A DNA stretch of 40,088 nucleotides from an uncultured Spirochaetales bacterium. GTDB lineage: Bacteria > Spirochaetota > Spirochaetia > Sphaerochaetales > Sphaerochaetaceae. The notes under the pieces are model-generated. The model was given only the letters and a program-made list of their open reading frames with translations, ran no database searches and was not told the origin of the DNA. Of this stretch, positions 17,278-34,576 are shown one piece after another. Location: NCBI GenBank assembly GCA_947305945.1, contig CAMZFA010000001.1:1-40088 (forward strand), written 5' to 3'. The stretch's first letter is position 1; each line of letters begins with the position of its first letter. A program made the position numbers and the translations under genes.

Positions 17278-19791
17278 TCAGCCTTTTACAACAAAACTCA
17301 CAAGTTTATTGGGAACAAAGATTTCCTTTACAATTGTCTGACCTTCAAGGTAACGCTGTACGTTCTCGTTCTCCTTTGCCAGAGCCATTGCATCTTCCTT
17401 TGACAGGCCCTTTGCACATTCAATCCTGGCCCTGACCTTGCCGTTTACCTGGACAACGAACTGAATGGTATCGTCCACGGTGAGGGCGGCATTGTACTGC
17501 GGCCAGTTCTCATTGCACACGCTGGGCCTGTGTCCGGCCTTCTCCCAGAGTTCCTCACACATATGGGGCACGTAGGGGGTAAGGATGAGGATGAACGGTT
17601 CCCATGCCTCGCGGGGCAGTGTGTCCAGTCTGGCAAGTTCGTTCACGTAGATCATCATCTGGCTGATGGCCGTGTTGAAGTTCAGCGTCCTTGTGTCGTC
17701 TCCAACCTTCTTTATTGTCTTGTGCAGTGTTCTGAGCAGCTCTTCCGGGGCCTTGTCGTCCGTGACGGGTTTTTCCTCGGAGAGTCTCCAGATTCTGTCT
17801 ATGAAGCGCCAGACTCCGGCAATTCCGGTGGTGCTCCACGGCTTTGAGACCTGAAGCGGGCCCATGAACATCTCATACATGCGCATTGTGTCTGCACCGT
17901 ACTGGGAAATGACCTCATCCGGGTTGATGACGTTCTTCAGGCTTTTGGACATCTTGGCAATTACGCGCTCAAGTTCCTCTCCGCTTTCAGTGTCAAAGAA
18001 CCTGCCGTCCCTCTCTTCTACCTGGTCGGAGGGAACAAGGCTCTTGTTCTTCTTCTGGTATGCGTAGGCTGTGATCATGCCCTGATTGACCAGTTTCATG
18101 AAGGGCTCCGGGGTGGAGACAAGTCCAAGGTCAAAGAGGACCTTGTGCCAGAATCTTGCATACAGCAGGTGCAGAACCGCATGTTCCGTTCCGCCTATGT
18201 ACAGGTCTACCGGCATCCAGTATTTTTCCTTGTCCTCTCCCACAAAGCGGTTGTTGTTGTGCGGATCTATGTAGCGCAGGTAGTACCAGCAGGAGCCTCC
18301 CCACTGGGGCATTGTGTTTGTTTCCCTCTTTGCGTCTTTTCCGCATCTGGGGCACTTGCAGTTCACCCAGCCTGTAATGTTTGCAAGCGGGCTTTCTCCC
18401 GTGCCGGAAGGCTGGTAGCTTTCAACATCCGGAAGTGTGAGCGGAAGCTCCTCATCAGGAACGGTGACTGTTCCGCAGTCCGGGCAGTGAATGAGGGGAA
18501 TGGGCTCTCCCCAGTATCTCTGGCGGCTGAAAATCCAGTCCCTGAGCTTGAAATTGACCGTTCTGTGACCTATGTGCTTCTCCTCAAGGAAGCCAAGCAT
18601 CTTCTCAATTGCATCGGCCTTGTTAAGTCCGTCCAGGAAGCCGCTGTTCACGTGAAGGCCGTCTTCGGTCCACGGCTGCTCCTGTACGTCCACACCGCTC
18701 TTGAGGACTTCAACGATGGGTAGTCCGAACTTTTTTGCAAACTCCCAGTCCCTTGTGTCATGGGCGGGAACGGCCATAATTGCACCGGTGCCGTAGGAAA
18801 TGAGTACGTAGTCTGCAATCCAGATGGGAATTTCCTTTCCGTTGACCGGGTTGATTGCATAGCTTCCGGAGAAGACGCCCGTCTTTTCCTTTGCAAGGTC
18901 CGTTCTGTCAAGGTCGCTCTTCTTTGAGGCCTGGTCCAGATAGGCAAGAACCTCTTCCTTTCTGTCTGCGGTTGTGAGCTTTGAGATGAGCGGGTGCTCG
19001 GGAGACACAACCATGTAGGTTGCACCGAAAAGGGTGTCACATCTTGTTGTGAAGACCTCAAGCTTTTCATCAAGGCCCTTCACTCCGAACAGGACGGATG
19101 CTCCTTCGGAGCGACCTATCCAGTTTCTCTGCATGAGCTTGACGCTTTCCGGCCAGTCCACAAGGTCCAGGTCGTCCAGCAGGCGCTGTGCGTAGTCCGT
19201 TATCCTCAGAACCCACTGTCTGATGTTCTTCTTCTCAACCTGTGTGCCGCATCTTTCGCACTTGCCTTCCTTTACCTCTTCATTGGCAAGGCCGGTCTTG
19301 CAGTGGGGACACCAGTTGATGGGGGCCTGGCTTTCATAGGCAAGGCCCTTTTCCCAGAGTTTCTTGAAAATCCACTGAGTCCATTTATAGTATTCCGGAT
19401 CGGAGGTGCTGACCTCTCTTGTCCAGTCATAGCAGAAACCCAGTCTCTTGATCTGCCTTCTGAAGTTGTTTATGTTCCTCCCGGTTGTGATTGCCGGGTG
19501 TGTTCCGGTCTGGATGGCGTAGTTTTCCGCAGGAAGGCCGAAGGAGTCAAATCCCATGGGATGAAGCACGTTGTAGCCGTTCATCCTGAGGTACCTGCAG
19601 TAGATGTCCGTTGCAGTGTAGCCTTCGGGGTGTCCTACATGAAGTCCCGCTCCGCTGGGATAGGGGAACATGTCAAGGACATAAGACCTTTTCTCCTCGG
19701 GGAAAGAAGGGTCCTCGGTGACTGTGAAGACGCCGTTGTCTTCCCAGTATTTCTGCCATTTTGTCTCAACGTTTTCAAAAGGATAACTCAT
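17278..19791 (-). CDS. leuS: Leucine--tRNA ligase
   Basis: Starts [26 protein letters not shown] motif is [10 protein letters not shown] and KMSKS is present. The 38-codon upstream extension of the ORF is rejected because it lacks homology and a promoter sits at 19799-19827. Confidence 0.92.
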
Positions 19792-19798
19792 GGCATCA

Positions 19799-19827
19799 AT
19801 CTTAATTTCTTTTATCCTAATATTCAA
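19799..19827 (-). promoter_or_regulatory. Putative leuS promoter: TTGAAT-17-TAAGAT, 7 nt from the ATG
   Basis: Minus-strand reading is TTGAAT (19822-19827), a 17-nt spacer, TAAGAT (19799-19804), tgatgcc, then ATG at 19791. Confidence 0.5.
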
Positions 19828-19911
19828 TCGGGGCAGTACTGCGGGGTGCCGGGTTGAACGCCGAAAAAAAATAAAACAACACCGTGACGGAAAAGCGTGT
19901 ATCATAGAGGC

Positions 19912-20610
19912 ATGAAACTTCTCGAGAAAATAGCATCACTTGTTCCTGAAAAGGAAAATGTTTTCATCTCCATAACGGGCGGCGGCGGAAAGTCTTCCCT
20001 CATGAAGGATCTTGCCGCATTCTACAAGGCACAGGGCAAGAAGGTCCTCATTACAACAAGCACCCACATTCAGAGCTATCTGTTCTACGACTGGGGGACG
20101 GACCGCAACTTCACCATGTTCGAGGAGGCATGCGCCTTCAATCCCGATGGTCCGTGCTGCATTCTCTATGCCAGCAACATGCAGGATGACGTTCAGAGAC
20201 TGAAAGCACCCTTTGAGGAAAGAGTTCATCAGTTGTCCCGCAGATATGATGTTACAATCTGCGAGGCGGACGGCAGCAGGCATCTTCCGCTGAAGTTCCA
20301 CACCTCCAGAGACCCGGTGATCTACCCGTTCTCGGATATCACAATTGCAGTGATGGGCGCCTGGGCATACGGAAAGGAGGCCTGGGAGGTGACCTTCGGT
20401 TATGACGGAGACAACCTTGTGGACCAGACCTTCCTCAACCATTACATTTCATCTCCGGACGGACTTCTCAAGGGCAGACCGGACTATGTTCTGGTCAACG
20501 GACTGGACGGAGACGTCAAGGCAGAGCCGTTCATGTTCCTCTCATGGCCCAGGGGGACAAGGGTACTGGGCGGAAGCCTTATGAACAACACTTTGGAGTT
20601 TGAGATATGA
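19912..20610 (+). CDS. yqeC: Selenium-dependent hydroxylase accessory protein YqeC
   Basis: Starts MKLLEK... with the P-loop-like [13 protein letters not shown] typical of the YqeC family. ATGA overlap with yqeB. Confidence 0.75.
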
Positions 20611-21404
20611 TAGACCGCCTGATGATTATCAGGGGTGCGGGAGATCTTGCAACGGGAACAGCCCTCAGGCTTCACAACTGCGGTTTTCCCGTAATCATGC
20701 TTGATATTGAAAAGCCCACAGTAATAAGAAGAACAGTCTCCTTTGCACAGGCCCTGTTCTCCGGAGAAACGGAGATTGAGGGAGTGAAAGCCCTGCGCTG
20801 CACATTGGAAAACGCTGAAACAACTGCGCGCAGCGGCATTATTGCCGTTGTGGCTGACCCCGGAGCAAAAATTCTGGACACCGTGAAACCGGCAGTTCTG
20901 ATAGATGCAATCATAGCCAAGAAGAACCTTGGCACATACAGGAACATGGCTCCTTTCACCGTGGCTCTGGGACCGGGATTTGAAGCCGGAAAGGACGTGG
21001 ATGCGGTAATAGAGACAAAGCGCGGCCATACTCTGGGTTCTGTGATCCGTGAAGGCTCTGCTGTTCCCAATACCGGAATCCCGGGTGTGATAGGAGGCTA
21101 CGGAAAGGAAAGGGTCATGCATTCCCCGTGCAGCGGAGTCTTTCACTCGGACCTTGAAATAGGGGCTCTTGTTGAAGCGGGTCAGACAATAGGAACGGTT
21201 GACGGGGTGCCCGTCATAACAGAGATTGCCGGAAAACTGAGGGGGCTTCTGTCCAGCGGTCTTCATGTTCCGGAGCACTTCAAACTTGCAGACGTGGACC
21301 CGCGCGGGGCTTCCGTTGACCATACAACTGTTTCAGACAAGGCCCGTGCCATAGCCGGCGGGGTGCTTGAGGCAGTCATGGGCTTTTTGTACGGAGGTTT
21401 CTGA
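20607..21404 (+). CDS. yqeB: Selenium-dependent molybdenum hydroxylase system protein, YqeB/EF2563 family (short ~265-aa form)
   Basis: 265 aa. N-terminus is MIIRGAGDLATGTALRLHNCGFPVIMLDIEKPTVIRRTVSFAQA. Positioned between yqeC and the desulfurase, as in the known clusters I recall. Confidence 0.75.
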   Translation: MIDRLMIIRGAGDLATGTALRLHNCGFPVIMLDIEKPTVIRRTVSFAQALFSGETEIEGVKALRCTLENAETTARSGIIAVVADPGAKILDTVKPAVLIDAIIAKKNLGTYRNMAPFTVALGPGFEAGKDVDAVIETKRGHTLGSVIREGSAVPNTGIPGVIGGYGKERVMHSPCSGVFHSDLEIGALVEAGQTIGTVDGVPVITEIAGKLRGLLSSGLHVPEHFKLADVDPRGASVDHTTVSDKARAIAGGVLEAVMGFLYGGF

Positions 21405-21406
21405 AA

Positions 21407-22543
21407 ATGCCCGCAAGAGTATATCTGGACAACGCGGCAACCTCCTTTCCCAAGGCTCCGGGTCTGGGACAGGTAATATCAACCTACATAGAGGAAGACT
21501 GCGTGAACATAAACAGGACGGACAGCCCTCTTGCAATGAAGAGCTTTGACTTTCTCATGGATTTGAGGGAGAACCTGTGCAGTCTTTTCAACTATCCCCA
21601 CCCGGAGTGCGTGATCTTCAGATCCGGTCTTACGGAGTCCATGAACTGGATAATCAAGGGGCTTCTGGAACAGGGCGACCATGTTGTTGTTACATCCCTT
21701 GAACACAACGCGGTAATGAGGCCTCTGGTACAACAGAAAATTTCATTTTCACGCATTCCCTGCAATGTTTACGGTTATTGCAGCGCAGAAGAGGCAGAGA
21801 AGCTGATAAGGCCGGAGACCCGTGCCATGATAATAAATGCGGCTTCAAATGTCTTCGGAACAGTTCAGGACCTGAAGGCTCTTTCACAGGTTGCTAAAAG
21901 ACACAATCTTCTGTTCATTGTCGATACCGCACAGTCCTGTCCCCATGTGAAGACGGACATGATGGATCTGGGGGCCGCAGCAGTATGTTTTGCCGGCCAC
22001 AAAGGTCTTCTTGGCCCACAGGGAACGGGAGGCTTCATAATCCGCAAAGACCTGGCCTCTCGGCTTGTCCCCCTGATTGCAGGAGGCACCGGAAGCAGGA
22101 GTGACAGCGAGGAAATACCGGACATGCTTCCGGACCGCTTTTCCCCGGGAACAGAGAATCTTCCGGGGCTGAGAGGTCTTGCCCACAGCGTTGAATATGT
22201 TCTGAACAACCTTGAAAATCTTGAAGAGACCACAAGGGAAAACACAAGGTACCTCTATGAGAAGCTTTCACAGATTGAGGGAATAAGGATTGTGGGACCC
22301 GGCCCGGACATGAGCAGAACACCCGCAATCTCAATAGTCTCCGACAGGGCGGACATTGCCGCTCTTTCTGCCGTTCTTGCGGAAAACGGAGTTGAGACAA
22401 GGGTTGGAATGCACTGTGCCCCTGCTGCCCATAAGGCCATGGGAACCTTCCCCGGGGGAACTCTGCGCCTCAGTGCCGGACCTTTTACCTCAAAAGATGA
22501 AATTGATTTTGCCGTAAAGATTCTGGCAGAGAACCCTGCCTGA
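21407..22543 (+). CDS. Class V aminotransferase-fold cysteine desulfurase / selenocysteine lyase (short-N-terminus EF2568-like type)
   Basis: 378 aa. Motifs YLDNAATSFPK, PLP-lysine context FAGHKGLLGPQGTGG and catalytic Cys context RVGMHCAPAAH are present. Confidence 0.85.
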   Translation: MPARVYLDNAATSFPKAPGLGQVISTYIEEDCVNINRTDSPLAMKSFDFLMDLRENLCSLFNYPHPECVIFRSGLTESMNWIIKGLLEQGDHVVVTSLEHNAVMRPLVQQKISFSRIPCNVYGYCSAEEAEKLIRPETRAMIINAASNVFGTVQDLKALSQVAKRHNLLFIVDTAQSCPHVKTDMMDLGAAAVCFAGHKGLLGPQGTGGFIIRKDLASRLVPLIAGGTGSRSDSEEIPDMLPDRFSPGTENLPGLRGLAHSVEYVLNNLENLEETTRENTRYLYEKLSQIEGIRIVGPGPDMSRTPAISIVSDRADIAALSAVLAENGVETRVGMHCAPAAHKAMGTFPGGTLRLSAGPFTSKDEIDFAVKILAENPA

Positions 22544-22670
22544 AGAAACTGAATAGAATACCGTCAAAAAAACTTCTCGGAAATCATCTTGAAAATCAGA
22601 TGTAAAATCTTGTCTCAAAACAGATAACTTTCATACCGGTTTTTACATGGAAAAAAGACGCAAAAAACCG

Positions 22671-22699
22671 TTGTATTCTGAAAAAAACAATGGTAGTAT
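22671..22699 (+). promoter_or_regulatory. Possible promoter of the yedE-selD operon: TTGTAT-17-TAGTAT
   Basis: TTGTAT (22671-22676), a 17-nt spacer, TAGTAT (22694-22699). About 38 nt of A-rich leader follows, with AGAGAGG before the ATG at 22738. Confidence 0.35.
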
Positions 22700-22737
22700 T
22701 CTTCCTTGGAAAAACAAAAAAGAGAGGTTAATTCCAA

Positions 22738-23802
22738 ATGAAAGAAAAACGCAATCTACTTATTGCAGGCCTGGTTATCGGTGTTATTTCGGTATTTCTG
22801 GTTCTGCAGGGAAACCCCAAGAACATGGGTTTCTGTATAGCCTGTTTTATTCGCGATATTGCAGGAGCAACAAAGCTCCACACAGCAGCAGTTGTCCAGT
22901 ATGTAAGACCTGAAATTCTGGGTCTTGTAATTGGATCATTCCTTATTTCTCTGTGCTTCGGAGAGTTCAAACCCCGCGGAGGCTCGGCACCCGTAACAAG
23001 GTTTGTCATTTCCTTTATAGTAATGATCGGCGCCCTTACATTCCTTGGCTGCCCGTTCAGAATGATTCTCAGACTCTCCGGCGGAGACCTCAATGCCCTT
23101 GTCGGTCTGTTCGGTTTTGCCTGCGGAATAGGATGCGGAGCATTTTTCCTTTCCAAGGGTTTCAATCTGGGTCGTACAAGTGAACAGAGAACCCTTGAAG
23201 GTGCAGCTCTTCCTGCAGTCAATGTTCTTCTTCTGATTCTTGTTCTTGCAGTTCCCGCACTGTTCGCCTTCTCGGAGAAGGGCCCGGGTTCAATGCACGC
23301 TCCCGTCATCCTTTCACTTGCTGCAGGTCTTGCAGTAGGTATTCTTGCCCAGAAGACAAGGCTCTGCATGGTAGGCGGAATCAGAGACACCATCCTGCTC
23401 AAGGACACAACACTGCTTGTCGGTTTCATTGCAATCTTTGCAGCAGCCCTTGTCATGAACCTTGTTACAGGCAACTTCAACCTCGGTTTTGCAGGTCAGC
23501 CCGTTTCACAGCCCAACCAGGTATTCAACTTCCTGGGCATGTTCACAGTAGGTCTCGGCGGAGCACTGCTCGGCGGATGCCCCCTCAGACAGCTCATTCT
23601 TGCAGGTGAGGGAAATTCAGACAGCGCAGTAAGCGTACTCGGAATGTTTGTCGGAGCAGCTTTTGCACACAACTTCAAGCTTGTCGGAAACGCAACGGAA
23701 GCAGGTCCCAACACCTACGGAAAGGCCGCTGTAATTCTCGGTATTGCTGTTCTGCTGGTAATAGGCTGGTACTACACATTCAAAAAGAAGGTGGCAAAAT
23801 GA
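22738..23802 (+). CDS. yedE: YedE-family putative selenium transporter
   Basis: 354 aa and polytopic. N-terminal motif NPKNMGFCIACFIRDIAGA and second-half GGCPLRQLILAGEG are present, the paired Cys-containing half-repeats of YedE/YeeE. Confidence 0.8.
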   Translation: MKEKRNLLIAGLVIGVISVFLVLQGNPKNMGFCIACFIRDIAGATKLHTAAVVQYVRPEILGLVIGSFLISLCFGEFKPRGGSAPVTRFVISFIVMIGALTFLGCPFRMILRLSGGDLNALVGLFGFACGIGCGAFFLSKGFNLGRTSEQRTLEGAALPAVNVLLLILVLAVPALFAFSEKGPGSMHAPVILSLAAGLAVGILAQKTRLCMVGGIRDTILLKDTTLLVGFIAIFAAALVMNLVTGNFNLGFAGQPVSQPNQVFNFLGMFTVGLGGALLGGCPLRQLILAGEGNSDSAVSVLGMFVGAAFAHNFKLVGNATEAGPNTYGKAAVILGIAVLLVIGWYYTFKKKVAK

Positions 23803-24005
23803 CGGAAGTTGATGCAAGAGGACTCAGCTGTCCCATTCCCGTAGTTGAAACCAAAAAGGCCCTCAAGGCCCACCCGGAAGGAGTGTGTGTGCTTGTGGAT
23901 GCCAAGGTTTGTGTTGAAAATGTTTCCCGTTTTGCCTCAGCAATGGGTTATAATGCCAAGGCAACAGAGGCAAACGGAGAATGGAAGATAGAAATAAGCA
24001 GATAA
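23799..24005 (+). CDS. yedF: TusA/SirA-fold sulfur/selenium carrier, YedF-like
   Basis: 68 aa with DARGLSCPIPVVETKKAL (the CPxP motif). ATGA overlap with yedE. Confidence 0.75.
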   Translation: MTEVDARGLSCPIPVVETKKALKAHPEGVCVLVDAKVCVENVSRFASAMGYNAKATEANGEWKIEISR

Positions 24006-24250
24006 TGACTGCAACATTCAGCAGTCACTACGGCGCAATGCTCACAAAGAAAAGACTGGGGGCAGGGTGTACCTTGAGGCCCATCCCCCGGTCTCTTTCT
24101 GCGTCCTGCGGCACCTGCGCCGTCATAGACGGCCATAGCCTTGAGGAGATAAAGGAAAGTTCAGGGGAATACCTTGAGGCCGTCTACATTGAAAATAAAG
24201 GAAGGTACGAGAAGATATATGAGTTCAATCCGTCTGACCAGTCTTGTTAA
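24005..24250 (+). CDS. DUF3343-like small Cys-containing protein, a putative Se/S carrier
   Basis: 81 aa from the ATG at 24005 (TAATG overlap with the yedF stop). Starts MTATFSSHYGAMLTKKRL with an ...SCGTCAV motif. The family call is from memory. Confidence 0.55.
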   Translation: MTATFSSHYGAMLTKKRLGAGCTLRPIPRSLSASCGTCAVIDGHSLEEIKESSGEYLEAVYIENKGRYEKIYEFNPSDQSC

Positions 24251-25247
24251 AACAAGCGGATGCGCCGCAAAACTGCCGCCTTCGGATCTGCACGCCGTAA
24301 TAGACAGCCTGCCGGTTCTTTCAAGCCCGGATCTCGTGGAGGGCTTTGAAACCGCGGATGACGCGCTTGTCTGGCGTGTGGGTGAAAACCGCGTCTGCGT
24401 ACAGACGGTGGATTTCTTCCCGCCTATGGTCGATGATCCGTATACCTTCGGCCAGATTGCCGCGGCCAACGCCCTCTCGGATGTCTACGCAATGGGCGGA
24501 GAGCCCTCGGTTTGCCTGAATCTCATGTGCTTCCCCGCCTGCCTCACGCTGGATGTCATGCGCAGAATCCTTCTGGGCGGCCTGGACAAGGCAAAGGAGG
24601 CCGGCGCGGTCATAGCCGGAGGCCACACCATTTCCGACCCCACGCCCAAGTACGGCCTTTGCGTCACTTCCTTCATGAATGAGGACGAGGTCTGGTCAAA
24701 CAGAACAGCCCTCCCGGGCGATGCCGTAGTGCTCACCAAGGCCCTGGGCGTAGGTATAGTCAACACCGCCGCCAAGGTGGACGAGGCTCCGGAGGAGAGT
24801 GTAAGACAGGCACAGGATTCAATGACCCGTCTTAACAGAAAAGCACGCGATATTGCACGTAAATACAGGATTCACGGTGCAACGGACGTAACCGGCTTCA
24901 GCCTTTCCGGCCACGGAAGCGAGGTTGCCGCAGCCTCCGGTCTTACATTGAAAATCAACACCGCAGACCTTCCTGTTATTGACGGAGCCCTTGAGCTTGC
25001 CCGTTTCGGCTTCCTGCCGGAGGGTCGTTATGCCAATGAGGAGTTCCTCAGGGACAAGGTCAGTTTTGCAGAGAATATCAAACTTGAAATGAGAGACCTG
25101 TGCTTTGATCCGCAGACAAGCGGCGGACTTCTTCTCTTCATGAGCCCCGGGGATGCCCGCTCTTATGTAAAAGAGATGGATATGGACTGCTGCAGGATAA
25201 TAGGGACAACTTACAAACAGGGAAAATACCTCATGGAGTACGTTTGA
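24219..25247 (+). CDS. selD: Selenide, water dikinase (selenophosphate synthetase), Cys-type
   Basis: Starts MSSIRLTSLVKTSGCAAKL. The catalytic Cys is TGC at 24261-24263, three residues before the Lys as in E. coli C17/K20. DFFPPMVDDPYTFGQIAAANALSDVYAMGG is present. Confidence 0.9.
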   Translation: MSSIRLTSLVKTSGCAAKLPPSDLHAVIDSLPVLSSPDLVEGFETADDALVWRVGENRVCVQTVDFFPPMVDDPYTFGQIAAANALSDVYAMGGEPSVCLNLMCFPACLTLDVMRRILLGGLDKAKEAGAVIAGGHTISDPTPKYGLCVTSFMNEDEVWSNRTALPGDAVVLTKALGVGIVNTAAKVDEAPEESVRQAQDSMTRLNRKARDIARKYRIHGATDVTGFSLSGHGSEVAAASGLTLKINTADLPVIDGALELARFGFLPEGRYANEEFLRDKVSFAENIKLEMRDLCFDPQTSGGLLLFMSPGDARSYVKEMDMDCCRIIGTTYKQGKYLMEYV

Positions 25248-25774
25248 TGCACATTTTCATTACAGGTGAAAAGCACGTTGGCAAAAGTACTGTGATAAGA
25301 AAAGTGCTTGAAGAGACCTCTCTCAAATACGGAGGTCTTTTTTCCGTCTCCGAATTTCAGGGCCCGGACAGGCTTGTCTATCTGACGGATGAAAGCGGGT
25401 CTGAAAGGAAACTCTGCGGAATATGTTCAAGTCAGCATGTGACGGAAAGGAGGCCGGAGGTCTTTGATACCGAAGGCGTGCGCCTTCTTGAAAAAGCCGC
25501 CCGGAGAAACAGCCTGATAGTCATTGACGAGATAGGAAACATGGAAAGCACGGCTGCCGTTTACAGCCGCACGGTGGAGAACCTTCTTGAGGACGCCGGA
25601 AAAACGGTACTGGGAGTAATCCAGAAAAGAGCATCATCGGAACTTGCCGCAAAAATAAGGGGAAATGCCGGTATCCTGATGTATACTGTTACTGAGGACA
25701 ACAGAAACGCCCTTGTCAATGAAATATCCGAGAGGCTGATCCGTGAACTGTGCTGTAAAACTGATTATAGGTGA
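25247..25774 (+). CDS. THEP1-like P-loop nucleoside triphosphatase (NTPase_1-like)
   Basis: Walker A is ITGEKHVGKST and Walker B is LIVIDEIGNME. It aligns along its length with Aquifex THEP1 as I remember it. TGATG overlap with the selD stop. Confidence 0.7.
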   Translation: MHIFITGEKHVGKSTVIRKVLEETSLKYGGLFSVSEFQGPDRLVYLTDESGSERKLCGICSSQHVTERRPEVFDTEGVRLLEKAARRNSLIVIDEIGNMESTAAVYSRTVENLLEDAGKTVLGVIQKRASSELAAKIRGNAGILMYTVTEDNRNALVNEISERLIRELCCKTDYR

Positions 25775-26072
25775 AAACCAACCCTCCGTGGGTCCCGGCC
25801 TGATTTCCCTTCTTGAGCTGATAAGGGAAAGCTCCAGCGTTATGGAAGCCGCCGAAAAGATGGATGTCTCATATTCAAAGGCCTGGAAGATAATCAGACA
25901 GGCCGAGGAAAACCTGGGAAAGAAACTTGTTTTGCGCAAAAGCGGAGGAACGGGCGGCGGAAGTGCGCAGGTCACACCCGAGGGACTGGCATTGATAAAG
26001 GCGTTCCGGAAGACCGAAAAACAGGTTTCAGATTTTGCTCGCAAAAAGGTACTTCTGAATTTCCCGTCCTGA
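25743..26072 (+). CDS. ModE N-terminal-domain-like winged HTH protein with no Mop/TOBE domain
   Basis: 109 aa. ISLLELIRESSSVMEAAEKMDVSYSKAWKIIRQAEENLGKKLVLRKSGGTGGGSAQVTPEG parallels the ModE N-terminal domain. The GTG start is uncertain and gives a 32-nt overlap with the NTPase gene. Confidence 0.65.
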   Translation: MNCAVKLIIGENQPSVGPGLISLLELIRESSSVMEAAEKMDVSYSKAWKIIRQAEENLGKKLVLRKSGGTGGGSAQVTPEGLALIKAFRKTEKQVSDFARKKVLLNFPS

Positions 26073-26079
26073 GGAGCGC

Positions 26080-27897
26080 ATGAAAAAACTCATTTTAACC
26101 GTTCTGCTGCTGTCAATTCTTCTGTCTCCCGTCTTTGCCGAAGACAAGGAACTGGAACTGGCCACGGTTCCTGTAGTTTACGGGGAGGAAGATTTCATAG
26201 CCCGTATACAGCAGCGCTGTCAGGGGCGTGAGCCCGTGGGTCTTGTTCTGACCGGAGGCAGCGCAAGGGCTCTTGCCCACATAGGGGTCCTGCAATATCT
26301 GGAAGAGCATAACATAGTCCCGGATTTCATCATTGCAAACTCAATGGGCTGCATAATTGCCACCTCCTATGCTGCGGGAATGTCCCCGCAGCAGATTCTC
26401 AGAGTCTGTACTTCCGTTGATCTGGGTTCTCTTTTCGATCTTTCCCTTCCTTTCGGAAGAGGTCTTTTGACAACACATGGATTTGAGAGTCTCATGGCCT
26501 CTCTTCTGGGTGAAAATCTTCAACTGGAGGACCTTGAAATACCGGTTATGGTTGTTTCCGAGGACCTTCTGTCAAAGCGTCAGATCAGAATCTGCAGCGG
26601 TGATTTCTACACTGCTTTCACCGCCAGTTATGCCTTGCCTGTGTTCTTCTCACCGGTCAGATTTGACAAATACCTTCTGACGGACGGCGGAGTTGCAAAC
26701 ATTGCCCCGCTGAATGCAGCCTATGACTATACTGACAGCAACATTGTCTCAACCACCTTCTACAGCGGAGCGGATACCAATTTAAAAAACCCCATCACCG
26801 TGCTGAACGTTGCCATGGACATTGGCAAGAGACGTGAGGGAATGGAGAACATCCAGGCCCATCCTGATGCAATCTGGATCAGGTGTGATGTTGAGGATTT
26901 CAGTTTCATGGAGTTCTCCGCCGGAGCAAAGATGGCCGAGCACGGGTACAGGTCCGCCTCAGAACATGAGGAGCAGATAAATGCGCTTGCAAAGAAGGGG
27001 GCAGGAGTTTCTGCCTCATTGCTTGAAAAGCGCAGAATCATGGAAGAGAGAATAGATAGAACACTTGAGAACTACAGGGGACAGAAACACCTGACCCTGC
27101 ACAGGAGTGCTTCCTATCCTTCCCTTTGGTTCCTGTCCGATCCGTCAGGCTTTCTTGCCGGCTGGAAGTATGCGGTCAGGTATATTGCTCTTTCCGCCGG
27201 AGCCGGCTTCTCTTACAGCCTCAATTCAAGAAATTCATATATAAAAGCACGCGCAGAGGCTGTGTTTGATTTTTATCCCTTTCCCAAGGCAAAGTTTGAG
27301 GCAAAACTTGCCTATCTGCCATGGAAGGAGTTTGAAGTTTCCGAGCTGTTTGAATATGCCTTCATCACAAGACCCGGGATGAGAGTCAGTGCCGGAGAGC
27401 TTGTTTCATGGAACAATGTTACGGGAAAAGCAGGCGGCCGCATCTATGCGGAGGGAGACTTCTCATTTGCACAGACGGGAGAACTTGAACCTTACGCCGC
27501 CTTTGTATTCAAGGGTGAAGATACCGGTTTTGCGGCTTCTGCCTCATACAGCATGAACTTCCCGGGAACGGTCTTCGGTTTCTCCGTCAGCGGCGGGACG
27601 GAAAAGAACTTTGACTCGGGAAACTATACTCTGAATGCCGGAGGAATGCTCTTTTGGCGTGATCCGGAATTTGAAACATCCTTTGCGGAAACCCTCCTGA
27701 TGACAGACGTGCGCTGCGGAGTTTTTGCCGACTACACATATGAGAAAGACACAAGCGGTACGGATCTGATCCTGGGCATCTTTGCAACTGCGGACACAGA
27801 CCTGCTGGGCCTTGTAAGTCTGCCTTCCGAAATCAAACTCGGCTGGGATTTTCTGTATGAAAAGTTCTATTTCTCCTTCTCCCTGAACAGAAGGTGA
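26080..27897 (+). CDS. Secreted patatin-like phospholipase with a ~270-aa aromatic/beta-rich C-terminal domain
   Basis: Signal peptide MKKLILTVLLLSILLSPVFA. Oxyanion motif is LTGGSARALAHIG. Nucleophile elbow is ANSMG (A replaces the first G of GxSxG). The Asp dyad motif is TDGGVANI. The GAGGAG ribosome-binding site overlaps the upstream stop codon. Confidence 0.8.
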   Translation: MKKLILTVLLLSILLSPVFAEDKELELATVPVVYGEEDFIARIQQRCQGREPVGLVLTGGSARALAHIGVLQYLEEHNIVPDFIIANSMGCIIATSYAAGMSPQQILRVCTSVDLGSLFDLSLPFGRGLLTTHGFESLMASLLGENLQLEDLEIPVMVVSEDLLSKRQIRICSGDFYTAFTASYALPVFFSPVRFDKYLLTDGGVANIAPLNAAYDYTDSNIVSTTFYSGADTNLKNPITVLNVAMDIGKRREGMENIQAHPDAIWIRCDVEDFSFMEFSAGAKMAEHGYRSASEHEEQINALAKKGAGVSASLLEKRRIMEERIDRTLENYRGQKHLTLHRSASYPSLWFLSDPSGFLAGWKYAVRYIALSAGAGFSYSLNSRNSYIKARAEAVFDFYPFPKAKFEAKLAYLPWKEFEVSELFEYAFITRPGMRVSAGELVSWNNVTGKAGGRIYAEGDFSFAQTGELEPYAAFVFKGEDTGFAASASYSMNFPGTVFGFSVSGGTEKNFDSGNYTLNAGGMLFWRDPEFETSFAETLLMTDVRCGVFADYTYEKDTSGTDLILGIFATADTDLLGLVSLPSEIKLGWDFLYEKFYFSFSLNRR

Positions 27898-27906
27898 GTT
27901 TTTCTG

Positions 27907-27935
27907 TTGACCCATAATCCTTAATGAAATACAAT
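27907..27935 (+). promoter_or_regulatory. Strong sigma70-type promoter: TTGACC-17-TACAAT
   Basis: TTGACC (27907-27912), a 17-nt spacer, TACAAT (27930-27935). About 45 nt of leader follows, with GGGAGGG before the ATG at 27981. Confidence 0.55.
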
Positions 27936-27980
27936 GGCCCTTGGTTGTGTTTTCAAAAACAAGACCAGGGAGGGTTCTCC

Positions 27981-29051
27981 ATGAAGAAGATATCGGCAAT
28001 TGTTGCCGTGTTTATGCTTTGTTGCAGTGTTTTGGTTGCACAGGGTGCCGTTGAACGTGAGGCACAGCTGAATAAAACCGTGCAGTTCACGGATTCCTGC
28101 GGAAGGACCGTTGAGCTTCCGGCAAAGATTACAAAGGTTGCTCCCTCCGGCATTGTTTCCTCCATGATGTTCTCATGCATTGCGCCGGAGTATATGTGCA
28201 ACATGAATTCAAAACTTTCTGATGCGCAGGCCGAATATCTTCCCCAAATCCTTAAGGATCTTCCCGCAACAGGCCAGCTTTACGGAAGCAAGGCCATAAT
28301 AAACTACGAGGAGCTGATTGCTACCGGAGCACAGGTTCTGGTGGACCTGGGAGATTACAAAAAGGGAATAGCGGAGGACCTTGATGCACTCCAGGCTCAG
28401 ATTGGAATTCCCTGTATCTTCATTGAGGCAGATCTTTCACATATGGCCGCTGCGTTCAGAACCCTGGGTTCGATTCTTGACGGAAAGCAGGCAAGGGGCG
28501 ATGAACTTGCCGCTCTGATTGAAGAAGCAATGAAGACCGCTGCGGAGGGCAGTGCGAAAATAAAGGAAGATGAAAGAGTGTCCGTCATGTTCTCCTCTCT
28601 GTCAAAAGGTCTGGGAACAAACGCCAAAGGCTCAAGCCAGGCACAGGTCCTTGAACTTGTGGGCGCCGAAAACGCAATTGTGGTTGAAAAGGTAACTTCA
28701 AAGGGCGGCGGAAACCTTGTGAGCATTGAACAGGTCTATGCCGCAGATCCGGATGTGATCATCTTCTCGGAGAAGGAAGTCTATGAAAGCGCTACCGCCG
28801 ATCCTGCGTGGAGGGAACTCAGGGCAATCAGAGAGGGCAGATATTACCTTGTCCCCACGGACCCTTACAACTGGCTTTCAAACCCGCCTTCACTGAACAT
28901 GGTCCTGGGTATCTACTGGCTGGGAAATCTTCTCTATCCTCAGTATTATGATTATGACATTGCCTTGCAGGTGCAGAAAATCTACAAGGTCTTCTGGAAC
29001 TGTGACCTTTCCGCATCTCAGACAGAGGCATTACTCAAGGGAGCAAGATAA
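27981..29051 (+). CDS. ABC transporter substrate-binding lipoprotein, Peripla_BP_2 (FecB/BtuF/FhuD) class
   Basis: Signal/lipobox-like MKKISAIVAVFMLCCS. The overall pattern fits a class III substrate-binding protein (...KVAPSG..., ...ADPDVIIFSE...). It is followed by a FecCD permease. Confidence 0.8.
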   Translation: MKKISAIVAVFMLCCSVLVAQGAVEREAQLNKTVQFTDSCGRTVELPAKITKVAPSGIVSSMMFSCIAPEYMCNMNSKLSDAQAEYLPQILKDLPATGQLYGSKAIINYEELIATGAQVLVDLGDYKKGIAEDLDALQAQIGIPCIFIEADLSHMAAAFRTLGSILDGKQARGDELAALIEEAMKTAAEGSAKIKEDERVSVMFSSLSKGLGTNAKGSSQAQVLELVGAENAIVVEKVTSKGGGNLVSIEQVYAADPDVIIFSEKEVYESATADPAWRELRAIREGRYYLVPTDPYNWLSNPPSLNMVLGIYWLGNLLYPQYYDYDIALQVQKIYKVFWNCDLSASQTEALLKGAR

Positions 29052-29056
29052 GACTC

Positions 29057-30100
29057 ATGAAAGACAGGGCTGCATACGGCTTCAAAATGACAATACTCTC
29101 AGTATGTTTTCTTGCCGTGTTCTTTCTGTCTTTTTTCCTGGGAAGATATGATCTGGACTTTCCCGCCGTGGTCAGAATCCTTACGGACAGGCTCATAAGG
29201 TTCCTGAGTTTCGGAAAACTGGGCCTTGTCCCCAGCTGGACAGGCGCACAGCAGGCAATAGTAGTTAACATACGCCTTCCCAGAATACTGGCGGCCGTTC
29301 TCATAGGGGCGGCCCTCTCTGTGGCCGGAGCATCCTATCAGGGCATGTTCAGAAACCCCATGGTGAGCCCTGACCTTCTGGGCGCCTCAACCGGTGCCGG
29401 ATTCGGAGCAGCCCTTGCCATTCTTCTGGGTTTTTCCTACACGGGAATAACCCTTTCATCATTCATTTTCGGCCTTTCAGCCGTCCTGCTTGCATATATA
29501 GTCTCAAAAGCCAGCCGGATACAGACCACCCTTGCAATGGTCCTGGCCGGTGTGATGGTCAGCTCCCTGTTCTCCGCAGGCACAAGTTTTGTCAAACTTG
29601 TTGCCGATACGGACAGTCAGCTTCCCGCCATTACCTACTGGCTCATGGGCTCTTTATCCTCAATCAAGGCAAAGGATGTTGAATTTGCGGCAATTCCCGT
29701 GCTGCTGGGCCTTGTTCCCATAGTCCTGCTGCGCTGGAGAATAAACCTGCTCACTGTTTCCGAGGCAGAGGCAAAGAGCATGGGAATTGAGACCGGAAAA
29801 CTCAGACTTCTGGTCATAATCTGCGCAACACTCATGACAAGTGCCGCTATATCCGTAAGCGGAATGATAGGATGGGTGGGACTTGCCGTACCGCACTTCT
29901 GCCGTCTTATCTTCGGGCAGGATTACAGACGCCTCATTCCATCTTCCGCCCTCATGGGAGCGCTGTTTCTTCTGCTTACGGACAACATTGCCAGAACAGT
30001 TGCAACATCCGAGATCCCGCTGGGAATCCTCACAGCCTTCATAGGCGCACCGGTGTTCCTCTATCTCATAATCACGGGAGGCAGTGAGAAAAATGATTAA
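29057..30100 (+). CDS. ABC transporter permease, FecCD/BtuC family
   Basis: 347 aa. Motifs NIRLPRILAAVLIGAALSVAGASYQGMFRNPMVSPDLLG and IPLGILTAFIGAPVFLYLI are present. Confidence 0.9.
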   Translation: MKDRAAYGFKMTILSVCFLAVFFLSFFLGRYDLDFPAVVRILTDRLIRFLSFGKLGLVPSWTGAQQAIVVNIRLPRILAAVLIGAALSVAGASYQGMFRNPMVSPDLLGASTGAGFGAALAILLGFSYTGITLSSFIFGLSAVLLAYIVSKASRIQTTLAMVLAGVMVSSLFSAGTSFVKLVADTDSQLPAITYWLMGSLSSIKAKDVEFAAIPVLLGLVPIVLLRWRINLLTVSEAEAKSMGIETGKLRLLVIICATLMTSAAISVSGMIGWVGLAVPHFCRLIFGQDYRRLIPSSALMGALFLLLTDNIARTVATSEIPLGILTAFIGAPVFLYLIITGGSEKND

Positions 30101-30869
30101 AACAGACAAACTCTGTTTTTCCTACTCCTCCAATGCAGTTCTCAGGGATGTGGATTTTCAGGCTCCGGAAGGAGTACTTGTCTCCGTTCTGGGTCCCAAC
30201 GGTGTGGGAAAGACCACGTTCTTCCGTTGCCTCCTGGGTTTTCTCAGGCCTACATCGGGAAGTGTGGAAATAAACGGAAAAGACGTTTGTGCATACACCA
30301 AACGCCAATTATCAAAGCAGATTGCATACATTCCGCAGAGCTACAACCCTGTCTTCAACCACACGGTAATGGACAGCGTGCTCATGGGGCTTACATCTTC
30401 ACTGGGCTTGTTCGAGCAGCCGGGAAAGACGGAGGAGGAAAAAGCCCTGAAGGCACTGGAAGAACTGGGAATTGCAGAACTTGCCGGCAGGGGAAGCATG
30501 AAGATTTCCGGCGGAGAACGCCAGCTCATGCTCATAGCCCGTGCCCTGGTCCAGGATGCAAAAATCCTGATCATGGATGAGCCTACGGCCAATCTGGACT
30601 ACGGCAACAGCTACCGCGTCATGCAGAAAATATCATGCCTCCGTGAGGACGGATACACCGTAATCTTTTCAACTCATAATCCCGATCAGGCCCTGCGCTG
30701 GGCAGACAGGGTTTTTGCCCTCAGTGACGGACAGGTCCTTGCGGACGGGCCTGCGGACAGCGCAATAAATGAACAAGTGCTGAAAAAACTTTACAGCGTT
30801 GACGTTGCGGTAAATACTGTCAGAGCGGGTAATGACCAATACAGGGTCTGTACCCCGTTCGGAGAGTAA
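30093..30869 (+). CDS. ABC transporter ATP-binding protein, FecE/BtuD-like
   Basis: Walker A GPNGVGKTT, signature ISGGERQ, Walker B ILIMDEPTANLD. The ATG at 30093 overlaps the permease stop by 8 nt. Confidence 0.9.
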   Translation: MIKTDKLCFSYSSNAVLRDVDFQAPEGVLVSVLGPNGVGKTTFFRCLLGFLRPTSGSVEINGKDVCAYTKRQLSKQIAYIPQSYNPVFNHTVMDSVLMGLTSSLGLFEQPGKTEEEKALKALEELGIAELAGRGSMKISGGERQLMLIARALVQDAKILIMDEPTANLDYGNSYRVMQKISCLREDGYTVIFSTHNPDQALRWADRVFALSDGQVLADGPADSAINEQVLKKLYSVDVAVNTVRAGNDQYRVCTPFGE

Positions 30870-30870
30870 A

Positions 30871-31599
30871 ATGCACAGAATGTCGGAATGGAATGCCTCA
30901 ATGATTGCCTTCATGGACGATGCGTCCTCATACGGTGATTATTTTGCCGCCCTTTCCGCCGCCCTTTCCCCGTATATAGGCAAGGATATGGCAGTCTGCG
31001 ATGCAGGCTGCGGAATAGGACAGCTGAGTTTTGCCCTCTCTCCATATGCGCAAAGCGTAACGGGAATTGACAGGTCCGAGGACGCCGTAAGGTTCTGTGA
31101 AAAGAAAAAACGCATTTCATATGTCTCCAACGTAAGTTTTGAATGCAAAGACCTTCTCAACATGCCCCGGAAAACGCAATTTGACGTGATGGTCTTCAAC
31201 TACTTCGGCCGTATGGAGCAGATTGTGGAAATTGCCCGCAGACACTGCAGGAAAAGGGTGATAGTGATCAAGAAGAACTATACTCAACACAGGTTCTCCA
31301 TAGGGAAGAATCCCATTTCCGGGCAGGAACTGTACGGAGCGGATGAATGTCTGGAACGTGAAAAAATTGCACACACCGGGGATTTGTTTTCACATGAATT
31401 CGGCCAGCCTTTCAGAAGTCTTGAAGATGCGGTGAAGTTTTTCGGTATATACAGCAGGGATGAAGACAGAAGCATTATAAACACTGAAAATGTGCAATCC
31501 AGACTTGTAAAAACCAATAATCCGGTTTTCCCCTGGTATCTTCCCCATGTCCGGGAGAGCAGGATTTACATAATTGAAATGAAGGAGATTCTCAAATGA
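30871..31599 (+). CDS. Class I SAM-dependent methyltransferase, substrate unknown
   Basis: Motif I is VCDAGCGIGQLSFAL. The ATG at 30871 is 1 nt after the ATPase stop, with GGAGAG upstream. Confidence 0.7.
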   Translation: MHRMSEWNASMIAFMDDASSYGDYFAALSAALSPYIGKDMAVCDAGCGIGQLSFALSPYAQSVTGIDRSEDAVRFCEKKKRISYVSNVSFECKDLLNMPRKTQFDVMVFNYFGRMEQIVEIARRHCRKRVIVIKKNYTQHRFSIGKNPISGQELYGADECLEREKIAHTGDLFSHEFGQPFRSLEDAVKFFGIYSRDEDRSIINTENVQSRLVKTNNPVFPWYLPHVRESRIYIIEMKEILK

Positions 31600-32420
31600 C
31601 GGAAGTACATTCCCAGACACTTAAGACCCTCATGCACGGCAGTGCCGCCGTTATCTGTGAAATAGTGGAAGCAAAGGGCTCTTCCCCGCGTAAAACCGGA
31701 GCACAGATGCTTGTGGACAACAGCGGCAGAACATGGGGCTCGGTAGGCGGCGGGGCCCTTGAGAACCTCTGTATAAAGAAAGCTCTGGAGCTGCATAAAA
31801 CAAAACAGGGCTATGTTCAGGAATTTGATCTTGCATCCGCCCTTGAGGACGGCTCGTCCATGATCTGCGGAGGGGATGTGACAATAGAATTCACATATCT
31901 GGATACTCAGGATGCCGTTTCCGCATATTTCGGAGAGGAGGAAAAGCCCATAAAGGTATACCTCTTTGGAGGCGGCCATGTAGGCACCGAGCTTGTTCCG
32001 GTTCTTGAGCACCTGCGCTTTGATGTCATTGTCCTTGACGACAGGCCGGAATTCGCTTCTGCAGATAGGCATCCGAAGGCAGGGCAGTGCATTCTCTGTG
32101 ACTATGAAAACATTGAAAAATACGTTTCCATACAGCCTGAGGACTATGTTGCGGTAATGACCCACGGTCACAAGAATGACAGGAATGTGCTTTTACAGTG
32201 CATGAGAAAGCACCCTTCTTACATAGGCTGCATTGGAAGCAGGAATAAGGTTGCCGCCACCCATCAGTTCCTCAGGGAAAACGGAATTACGCAGGAAGAT
32301 ATAGACAGGCTGCATTCACCCATAGGCATAGACCTTCTGGGTGACACTCCCGAGGAGATTGCAATAAGCATTGCGGCTCAGCTGATAAGGCATCGCGCAG
32401 AAAATGCGCGGAAAGCCTGA
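31596..32420 (+). CDS. XdhC/CoxI-family molybdenum cofactor insertion chaperone
   Basis: 274 aa. The N-terminal XdhC_CoxI region is AAVICEIVEAKGSSPRKTGAQMLV...GSVGGGALE. The Rossmann-like C-terminal region is VYLFGGGHVG. ATGA overlap with the methyltransferase gene. Confidence 0.8.
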   Translation: MTEVHSQTLKTLMHGSAAVICEIVEAKGSSPRKTGAQMLVDNSGRTWGSVGGGALENLCIKKALELHKTKQGYVQEFDLASALEDGSSMICGGDVTIEFTYLDTQDAVSAYFGEEEKPIKVYLFGGGHVGTELVPVLEHLRFDVIVLDDRPEFASADRHPKAGQCILCDYENIEKYVSIQPEDYVAVMTHGHKNDRNVLLQCMRKHPSYIGCIGSRNKVAATHQFLRENGITQEDIDRLHSPIGIDLLGDTPEEIAISIAAQLIRHRAENARKA

Positions 32421-32427
32421 AGGAGCA

Positions 32428-34419: not shown

Positions 34420-34576
34420 ACCCTGCTTATGTCGTTTCGCAGGATTTTTCTCCCCACTTTTTCTGCTGAAAAACACGGGAAAAAACAGAAAAATTCCGGG
34501 GCCCGTAGGGCATGAAACCTCGCGTTACACAATAGGTAGTGGTATTTTGATTGTTTATTTGTTATTATTTACAAAT

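Follow-up and report, generated by a model that had tools for sequence, protein, structure and literature searches.

A conserved 14-gene cluster carrying the SelD, YqeB and YqeC markers of the selenium-cofactor trait in an uncultured Sphaerochaetaceae-like spirochaete

Molybdenum hydroxylases with selenium drive the anaerobic breakdown of purines and urate in gut bacteria. The biochemistry of selenium entry into these enzymes is still obscure, and genetic support exists so far only for selD and yqeB. The closest prototype of the locus discussed here is the Enterococcus faecalis EF2563-EF2572 cluster, which represents the orphan SelD/selenium-dependent xanthine dehydrogenase (XDH) type (Haft & Self 2008, PMC2276186; Zhang et al. 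2008, PMC2432076), and the product of one of its genes, EF2568, is the selenocysteine lyase SclA (bioRxiv 10.1101/2020.02.07.939272). Clostridioides difficile needs both selD and yqeB in order to use xanthine and urate (PMC11448449), and in Clostridium sporogenes selD is required for XDH and 2,8-dioxopurine dehydrogenase (DOPDH) activity (bioRxiv 10.1101/2025.04.24.650524). We report that a 40,088-nucleotide (nt) stretch from an uncultured, gut-type Spirochaetales bacterium (contig CAMZFA010000001.1, positions 1 to 40,088, forward strand; the whole stretch is referred to as the window) carries yqeC, yqeB and selD in one cluster, and that this cluster is part of a 14-gene string conserved among uncultured Sphaerochaetaceae-like spirochaetes. 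The string probably represents a maturation system and supply line for a selenium cofactor, i.e. the "third selenium trait".

The three markers of the trait all score above their trusted cutoffs (scores are given in bits throughout and are compared with NCBIfam trusted cutoffs or Pfam gathering thresholds). Specifically, YqeC (19912-20610; this and all other genes of the cluster are on the plus strand), a selenium-cofactor accessory protein and P-loop NTPase with a GGGGKS loop, scores 100.6 on TIGR03172 (cutoff 73.05) and 101 on Pfam YqeC, and YqeB (20607-21404), the marker of the selenium-dependent molybdenum hydroxylase trait and here a short form of 265 amino acids (aa), scores 346.1 on TIGR03309 (cutoff 220). 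The selenophosphate synthetase SelD (24219-25247) scores 347.7 on TIGR00476 (cutoff 125); its open reading frame (ORF) opens at 24174 and ATG 24219 is the most likely start, giving 342 aa as in the related loci L001 and L085, and the GCAAK motif places it in the Cys type. Moreover, the putative selenium transporter YedE (22738-23802) scores 486.3 on TIGR04112 (cutoff 200) over profile positions 2-337 of 337, and at most 43 on TsuA. An earlier note, made from the letters of the window alone, had named these four families, called the SelD a Cys type and assigned the locus to the SelD/YqeB/YqeC trait; the hidden Markov model searches bear out the four families, the GCAAK motif bears out the Cys type, and the assignment is a sound one.

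For the same part of the cluster an EF2568-type desulfurase, a YedF and a ModE-N protein had also been proposed. These names correspond to best matches, and all three proteins fall below the curated cutoffs. The group II NifS-like pyridoxal phosphate (PLP) enzyme (21407-22543), an EF2568/SclA-like cysteine desulfurase or selenocysteine lyase, scores 340.6 on TIGR01977 (the EF2568 family; cutoff 377) and 304 on the SclA model NF040779 (cutoff 525), yet these are its two best matches. It carries the group II motif RXGXHCA as RVGMHCA at residues 332-338 (Cys337), HK at 198-199 with the PLP lysine Lys199, and His100 in LEHNA, where the motif definitions were taken from bioRxiv 10.1101/2020.02.07.939272 and His100 was paired with H100 of SclA by residue number and motif, without alignment to SclA. 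The small TusA/SirA-like (YedF-like) protein, a putative sulfur or selenium carrier of 68 aa with a CPIP motif (23799-24005), scores 68.5 on Pfam TusA and is below the cutoffs of the YedF models (54.5 on TIGR03527, cutoff 110, with only the N-terminal 61 of 194 positions covered; 19.6 on PRK11018, cutoff 79). It is followed by the gene for a small DUF3343/Se_S_carrier protein with a CGTC motif (23981-24250; 34.5 on PF11823, cutoff 25). Between selD and the regulator gene, and translationally coupled to both, is the gene for a P-loop NTPase of the NTPase_1 (THEP1/NTPCR) family (25247-25774; 95.6 on PF03266, cutoff 23.9), which has a Walker A motif, GEKHVGKS, at residues 7-14, PDB matches to 1ye8 (1.6e-9) and 2i3b, and a score on PRK13695 (81.1) below the cutoff of 156. 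The putative regulator (25743-26072) is a winged helix-turn-helix (HTH) protein of 109 aa resembling the N-terminal domain of ModE (Pfam HTH_1 37.8; TIGR00637 66.4, below 98.5); its best PDB matches are the molybdenum-binding repressor 2ijl (7.5e-10) and Escherichia coli ModE (7e-7), and neither NCBIfam nor Pfam gave a Mop/TOBE match; it is called the "mini-ModE" below.

These nine co-directional plus-strand genes, 19912-26072, were confirmed in the ORF list of the window, with coordinates and junctions as the earlier note had given them: yqeC and yqeB share a 4-nt ATGA overlap, yqeB and the desulfurase gene are 2 nt apart, a 194-nt gap (22544-22737) precedes yedE, and the subsequent junctions overlap by 4, 25, 32, 1 and 32 nt. 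That nine genes in 6 kb make up the unit did not hold, since in five related contigs the same string continues through an importer, a methyltransferase and XdhC. In the window a patatin-like phospholipase gene (26080-27897, plus strand; Pfam Patatin), which is outside the conserved cluster, comes first, and 3' of it are five more plus-strand genes that end at 32420. These encode a MolA-like class III periplasmic binding lipoprotein (27981-29051; Peripla_BP_2), a MolB-like permease of a type II ATP-binding cassette (ABC) importer (29057-30100; FecCD, 290), an ABC transporter ATPase in the position of MolC (30093-30869; ABC_tran, 112), an S-adenosylmethionine (SAM)-dependent methyltransferase (30871-31599; Methyltransf_31/25/11) and, as the last cluster gene, XdhC (31596-32420), a chaperone for binding and insertion of the molybdenum cofactor (Moco). 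The conserved unit is 14 genes, 19912-32420, here split by the patatin gene.

XdhC narrowly passes TIGR02964 (165.5 against 161.6) and has the XdhC_CoxI and XdhC_C domains (PF02625 62.8, PF13478 140.8), while its score on NF045664, 268.7, is below 350; its gene is joined to the methyltransferase gene by an ATGA overlap. XdhC chaperones are specific to xanthine-oxidase-family enzymes, and with xdhC in the conserved cluster a hydroxylase-specific accessory gene therefore belongs to the unit. Neumann 2006 is cited on this specificity in PMC2432076.

The same gene order is present in at least six independent contigs, with 43-96% amino acid identity per gene to the window, and recurrence at such identities argues that the arrangement is not due to chance. 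The closest public YqeB sequences are from uncultured Sphaerochaetaceae/Spirochaetales, the best match among GTDB representatives being 63% identical (Ca. Ornithospirochaeta/Sphaerochaetaceae metagenome-assembled genomes, MAGs). Locus L001 (YqeB 89% identical) agrees with the window in all nine genes, in the patatin gene and in the flanks, and in L085 (YqeB 87%, NTPase 73%) all 14 genes are contiguous and co-directional, without patatin and with the same leuS and serine dehydratase flanks. The same 14 genes are contiguous and co-directional also in L090 (YqeB 68%, NTPase 43%), where the chromosomal context is another one, which argues that the 14-gene string moves as a unit. In L007, a Sphaerochaetaceae MAG of GTDB, the string is present without the desulfurase gene, and L091 and L092 together span yqeB to the start of the methyltransferase gene, where the contigs end. 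The NTPase_1 gene is located between selD and the HTH gene in L001, L085, L086, L090, L007, L091 and L092, and the methyltransferase gene between those for the ATPase and XdhC in L085, L090 and L007; in 8 GTDB spirochaete loci it is beside the transporter.

In the slot between the HTH gene and the gene for the MolA-like protein, the window and L001 have patatin, L091 (3957-4847) and L092 (5410-6300) have a gene for a DAGK_cat/YegS-like lipid kinase, and L085, L090 and L007 have no gene. The absence of patatin from this slot in the other relatives marks it as a lineage-specific insertion. With patatin and DAGK_cat in one slot, the conserved cluster has taken up a gene for a lipid enzyme twice at a single point, each time a different one. 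The patatin-like protein itself is 605 aa, and Pfam matches residues 55-214 only. As to copy number and form, some Sphaerochaetaceae/Spirochaetales MAGs have two separate yqeC-yqeB loci (L013 and L022 in JAILPZ01; L012 and L017 in CASFMA01), and about half of the spirochaete YqeB ORFs are of a long XdhC-fused form (approximately 500-600 aa), while that of the window is short.

The sequences of YqeB and YqeC gave no significant match in the PDB. A profile built from 14 YqeC orthologues aligns to SIMIBI NTPases (ArsA 7.8e-5, and FtsY) in the P-loop region alone; the SIMIBI class takes in many metallocentre-assembly NTPases. An AlphaFold (AF2) model of YqeB (pLDDT 88.2, pTM 0.81) shows a Rossmann-like N-domain and a barrel-sandwich C-domain. 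In Foldseek searches the N-domain matches, weakly, NAD-binding folds and the XdhC-like protein 3on5, and the C-domain superposes on biotinyl/lipoyl-type domains with 1.4-2.5 Å over 65-75 columns; no full-length PDB analogue of the model was obtained, only matches at the domain level (TMq at most 0.32). The barrel-sandwich domain agrees with the similarity to AccB that Johnstone and Self remarked on. The YqeB profile and the window XdhC did not match significantly (hhalign, E 0.19); in the neighbour clustering described below, however, BLAST joins XdhC ORFs to those of long-form YqeB.

The gene content suggests a route along which selenium might be handled. YedE would import selenium, the TusA-like protein and the DUF3343 protein would carry it on cysteines, and the SclA-like group II PLP lyase would free it from selenocysteine. 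SelD makes selenophosphate, and the Cys-type enzyme of the cluster is predicted to do so from selenide and ATP. Molybdate or tungstate for Moco synthesis, the genes for which would be elsewhere, may be brought in by the MolBC-A-like type II importer. The established activities of XdhC are Moco binding, Moco sulfuration together with a NifS-like partner, and Moco insertion; here XdhC would hold and present Moco, so that YqeB and YqeC could use selenophosphate to place a labile selenium ligand instead of, or beside, the terminal sulfido ligand, with YqeC as a putative nucleotide-dependent helper of YqeB in this installation. The finished cofactor would then be inserted into a hydroxylase of the xanthine dehydrogenase family encoded elsewhere in the genome. 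The ModE-N-like protein, whose gene never occurs in this lineage without the NTPase_1 gene as its partner, is probably a regulator of the transporter or maturation genes, and the NTPase_1/mini-ModE pair may as such be regulatory. The statement in the earlier note that no biochemical mechanism is known still applies to YqeB and YqeC; it did not take into account that yqeB genetics now exist (PMC11448449) and that EF2568 has been characterised as SclA (bioRxiv 10.1101/2020.02.07.939272).

New leads are the links of the trait to a MolBC-A-like transporter, to the NTPase_1 protein and to the methyltransferase; neither the NTPase nor an ABC system of this kind is mentioned in the trait context by Haft & Self 2008, Zhang 2008, Lin 2015, Peng 2016 or Johnstone & Self 2024. 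With selenium uptake and activation, YqeB/YqeC, XdhC and a likely molybdenum importer in one compact and recurrent cluster, the candidate partners narrow to XdhC in combination with YqeB/YqeC, and to the NTPase_1 protein, the methyltransferase and the mini-ModE. Going further, we tentatively raise the possibility that the 14-gene string is a self-contained kit for a selenium-molybdenum cofactor, with the NTPase_1 protein, the MolBC-A-type importer and the SAM methyltransferase, none of them reported in these papers on the trait, as dedicated parts. If true, the string would be the smallest set of genes with which to reconstitute the insertion of selenium into molybdenum hydroxylases, which among the biological routes of selenium is understood least.

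Several observations weigh against the string being a selenium-cofactor supply line. A yqeC deletion in C. difficile had no phenotype (PMC11448449), and the YedE, TusA, DUF3343 and desulfurase families also handle sulfur. Homologues of the NTPase_1 protein at 34-44% identity are situated in unrelated, non-selenium contexts, so its link to selenium is clade-restricted. NCBIfam gives the transporter only weak matches of siderophore/B12 type, and because the binding protein is MolA-like in its C-terminal lobe only, the assignment to molybdate rests mainly on the permease and the context. Promoter and terminator scans were at chance level, and the operon structure is therefore drawn from the overlaps only. 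Finally, the 40-kb window itself holds no hydroxylase gene, no Moco-biosynthesis gene and no YgfJ/MocA-type gene; given the latter, and the desulfurase, YedF-like and ModE-N proteins below their cutoffs, "complete", the word of the earlier note for the gene set, goes too far, as does its "orphan-SelD" for a stretch of 40 kb.

With respect to other uses of selenophosphate, Pfam scans of all other long ORFs in the 40 kb gave no SelA, SelB, SelU or MoCoBD/Ald_Xan_dh domain and ARAGORN found no tRNA, including tRNA-Sec, in the window, which agrees with the earlier statement that selA, selB, selC, selU and a hydroxylase gene are lacking here. SelD might nevertheless not be an orphan: yedE-tusA-DUF3343-selD could mainly feed a selenocysteine (Sec) and/or selenouridine system elsewhere in the genome, where the window leaves room for selA, selB or selU, with yqeC and yqeB sharing the selenophosphate pool. 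Selenium traits do co-occur significantly across bacteria (PMC5322559, PMC5029168), and the first link drawn for YedE, YedF and DUF3343 was to organisms that decode Sec. On the other hand, selD is translationally embedded in a cluster that runs from yqeC/yqeB to xdhC in every relative examined, and in the 2008 survey selD adjoined yqeB/yqeC only in orphan-SelD organisms (PMC2432076). We regard this explanation, which is compatible with a selenium-cofactor role of the cluster, as possible and worth keeping in mind, if not the probable one.

The transporter is where the extent of the functional unit can be questioned. The permease has HI1471 MolB (2nq2) as its best PDB match (8.3e-69, 235.6), followed by FhuB (172), HmuU (164) and BtuC (141). 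The binding protein, whose gene probably starts at ATG 27981 rather than at 27924 (a GGGAGGG Shine-Dalgarno sequence is upstream and a lipoprotein-type signal peptide begins there), best matches the uncharacterised structural-genomics proteins 4pag (3.3e-32) and 4ovk, and it aligns to MolA HI_1472 (3psa; 1.4e-11) over residues 183-359 only, i.e. the C-terminal lobe. For the ATPase the 258-aa form from ATG 30093 matches that in L085, and the methyltransferase has no specific match in NCBIfam or the PDB. MolBC-A is an experimentally characterised low-affinity molybdate/tungstate importer of type II architecture (PMC4031551), and since a ModE-type HTH gene precedes the transporter genes and xdhC follows them, the simplest prediction for the substrate is molybdate or tungstate. 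The system may instead be an ordinary importer of iron-siderophore, haem or corrinoid, in which case the functional unit would be the nine genes with a separately acting XdhC. The FecCD/BtuC/Peripla_BP_2 families with weak BtuF and ferrichrome matches (Pfam, NCBIfam), an N-lobe that does not align to MolA, and a weak match of the methyltransferase to CpaM, a corrinoid-associated methyltransferase, would fit such an importer. Against it, the permease scores 235.6 with MolB and only 140-172 with FhuB, HmuU and BtuC, a ModE-type HTH gene stands before the transporter genes and xdhC after them, and the transporter is linked to yqeC/yqeB in many loci and in two arrangements, co-directional or divergent. 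Weighing these points we find the siderophore, haem or corrinoid alternative doubtful. As a precedent for the transporter the Haft 2022 preprint on selenoprotein ABC transport was considered and found not relevant.

Gene neighbourhoods were surveyed in 80 YqeB loci taken from GTDB species representatives with flanks of up to 10 kb on each side, which were annotated with phmmer using the window proteins and the hydroxylase, SsnA and YgfK proteins of locus L002 as queries; loci with at least 7 kb on both sides (19 from spirochaetes, 23 from others) were regarded as well-flanked. A MolB-like transporter with the HTH gene adjoins yqeC-yqeB in 13 of the 38 spirochaete GTDB loci, and 9/19 well-flanked spirochaete loci have a MolB-like permease gene. 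In many spirochaete loci the genes for the binding protein, methyltransferase, ATPase, permease and HTH protein, in this order, are divergent from yqeC-yqeB, often with xdhC alongside, and in the Bacillota a Faecousia locus (L080) has the transporter and HTH genes joined to desulfurase-YedF-SelD-YqeB-XdhC. The link of the transporter to yqeC/yqeB thus recurs in different arrangements.

The survey also bears on the client enzyme. A gene for a hydroxylase large subunit is nearby in only one of the 19 well-flanked spirochaete loci, compared to 16/23 in other phyla, so that a client enzyme encoded at a distance is normal for this clade; in rumen and gut Sphaerochaetaceae the maturation genes are routinely apart from client enzymes. 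The missing hydroxylase, which the earlier note had placed in its heading, is thus the usual state. In locus L006 (rumen Spirochaetales MAG RUG11866 of GTDB) genes for two complete enzymes of the xanthine dehydrogenase family are directly upstream of the yqeC-to-selD string, the first consisting of a MoCoBD large subunit with Fer2_2 and FAD subunits and the second of an FAD subunit and a 958-aa Fer2_2-MoCoBD fusion; the last hydroxylase gene overlaps yqeC of yqeC-yqeB-desulfurase-yedE-tusA-DUF3343-selD, and ygeX-like PALP genes are downstream. The G+C content of L006 is only 33%, yet the order from yqeC to selD is kept, and the locus lends itself well as a natural model for matching the maturation genes to a client. 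In L002, which by its composition comes from another organism than the window, yqeB is beside xdhD-, ssnA- and ygfK-like genes. The idea that the hydroxylase-bearing L002 and L003 (the latter from the same sample as L001) belong to the organism of L001 was rejected, with a G+C content of 56.5% against 51.5% and a tetranucleotide correlation of 0.57-0.59 against 0.97-0.98 for true relatives.

The conserved xdhC together with the contexts in L006 and L002 suggests that a classical selenium-dependent hydroxylase of the xanthine dehydrogenase family, encoded outside the window, is the most likely client, with XDH, purine hydroxylase and the recently described 2,8-dioxopurine dehydrogenase as candidates. 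The earlier note had left room for a client of an unrecognised kind, i.e. some other selenium- or molybdenum-dependent enzyme. The window without a hydroxylase, and the single hydroxylase within 7-10 kb among the 19 well-flanked spirochaete loci, are what such a client would lead one to expect; against this, the conserved XdhC is family-specific and passes TIGR02964, the same genes are directly beside classical hydroxylases in L006 and L002 (in the former the seven-gene string stands behind two ordinary ones), and unsupervised clustering of all neighbours of 84 YqeB loci revealed no recurrent unidentified enzyme, the recurrent families being proline biosynthesis, a CDF transporter, adenine deaminase, NAPRTase, Moco genes and known hydroxylase subunits. 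An unrecognised client is thus very unlikely, and the locus gives no pointer to a new kind of selenium enzyme. That the cluster handles sulfur rather than selenium, e.g. in thiosulfate uptake and Moco sulfuration, is harder still to defend, for although YedE is related to the thiosulfate transporter TsuA (weak matches), TusA, DUF3343 and NifS-like enzymes work on sulfur elsewhere and a NifS-like protein is the usual sulfur donor of XdhC, SelD is an equivalog with a full score, YedE scores 486 on a selenium-specific model and at most 43 on TsuA, and YqeB of TIGR03309 has been reported only in selD-positive genomes by Haft and Self (PMC2276186).

As to signals for expression of the cluster, no Rfam family, including the Moco riboswitch, was found across 19600-32600 at gathering thresholds or at E≤1, and promoter- and terminator-like matches were at the level of shuffled sequence (10 versus 9.1 and 18 versus 16). 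The 194-nt gap upstream of yedE, annotated as a possible internal promoter, had been called a promoter gap; its length was correct, while no promoter-like match in it exceeds chance and the corresponding gap varies between 33 and 168 nt in relatives. Within it is an imperfect inverted repeat, 22600-22648 (ATGTAAAATCTTGTCTCAAA / TTTCATACCGGTTTTTACAT), with the outer 8 nt perfect, which could be an operator. The region's best sigma-70-like site, TTGACC-17-TACAAT at 27907-27935, is between the patatin and binding-protein genes, such sites being overall at chance frequency, and at the same junction a terminator-like hairpin (27875-27894) is followed by TTTTTC.

Upstream of the cluster, leuS (17278-19905, minus strand) was predicted mechanically with 38 codons too many; the likely start is ATG 19791, giving 837 aa as in L001 and L085, and the divergent leuS-yqeC intergenic region is therefore approximately 120 nt. 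Apart from leuS, the other long ORFs of the window are, according to Pfam, housekeeping genes and comprise pth, DUF4416, an alpha-amylase-family protein, a glycosyltransferase, iPGM, an M24 peptidase, lgt, an S41 peptidase, rsmE, pfkB, serine dehydratase, parE/parC-like topoisomerase genes and a pseudouridine synthase. A gene for a 433-aa protein with Schlafen AlbA_2 and HATPase_c_4 domains (6787-8088) is in a patch of 44% G+C, compared to approximately 51%, and may have been acquired horizontally. Three ORFs (246, 391 and 273 aa) at 11045-12957 and 33655-34476, all on the minus strand and all kept in L001 and L085, have no significant family match; that of the 391-aa ORF to SDF stayed below threshold.

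Compared with its closest prototype, the window shares with E. faecalis EF2563-EF2572 YqeB, YqeC, a SirA/TusA-like protein, SelD, a class-V aminotransferase (SclA; CsdB), XdhC and, in the window in a ModE-N-like form, a ModE-domain protein, and a role in making a labile selenium cofactor is proposed for both. The E. faecalis cluster holds the hydroxylase EF2570 and a MobA-related/YgfJ-type gene, both lacking in the window, whereas YedE, DUF3343, NTPase_1, the MolBC-A-like importer and the methyltransferase are present in the window and absent from the E. faecalis cluster; moreover, the window desulfurase and YedF-like proteins score below the cutoffs of models derived from E. faecalis. The putative importer has the three components of H. 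influenzae MolBC-A (HI1470-HI1472), with a binding protein of the same class III family, but differs in having a mini-ModE gene in front, in the embedded SAM methyltransferase and XdhC genes, and in a binding-protein likeness confined to the C-lobe. Like Rhodobacter capsulatus XdhC/NifS4, the window combines an XdhC-family chaperone with a NifS-like PLP enzyme for a cofactor of the xanthine oxidase family; the R. capsulatus pair installs sulfur, whereas the addition of SelD, YqeB and YqeC in the window would imply selenium. The purine/urate clusters of C. difficile, C. sporogenes and E. coli (ygeV-ygfK) share the YqeB/YqeC/SelD dependence of xanthine-dehydrogenase-family enzymes (PMC11448449, bioRxiv 10.1101/2025.04.24.650524), and purine/urate pathway genes (xdhD-, ssnA-, ygfK- and ygeX-like) are beside yqeB also in the relatives L002 and L006. 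YqeB of the E. coli type is the long XdhC-fused form, whereas in the window YqeB (265 aa) and XdhC are encoded by separate genes 10 kb apart. In the clostridial and enterobacterial clusters the maturation genes are found among catabolic genes, whereas in the window they are detached from these and joined to selenium-uptake and putative molybdenum-uptake modules. The trait is a known one, seen here in a new lineage and with a variant, fuller supply-line architecture.

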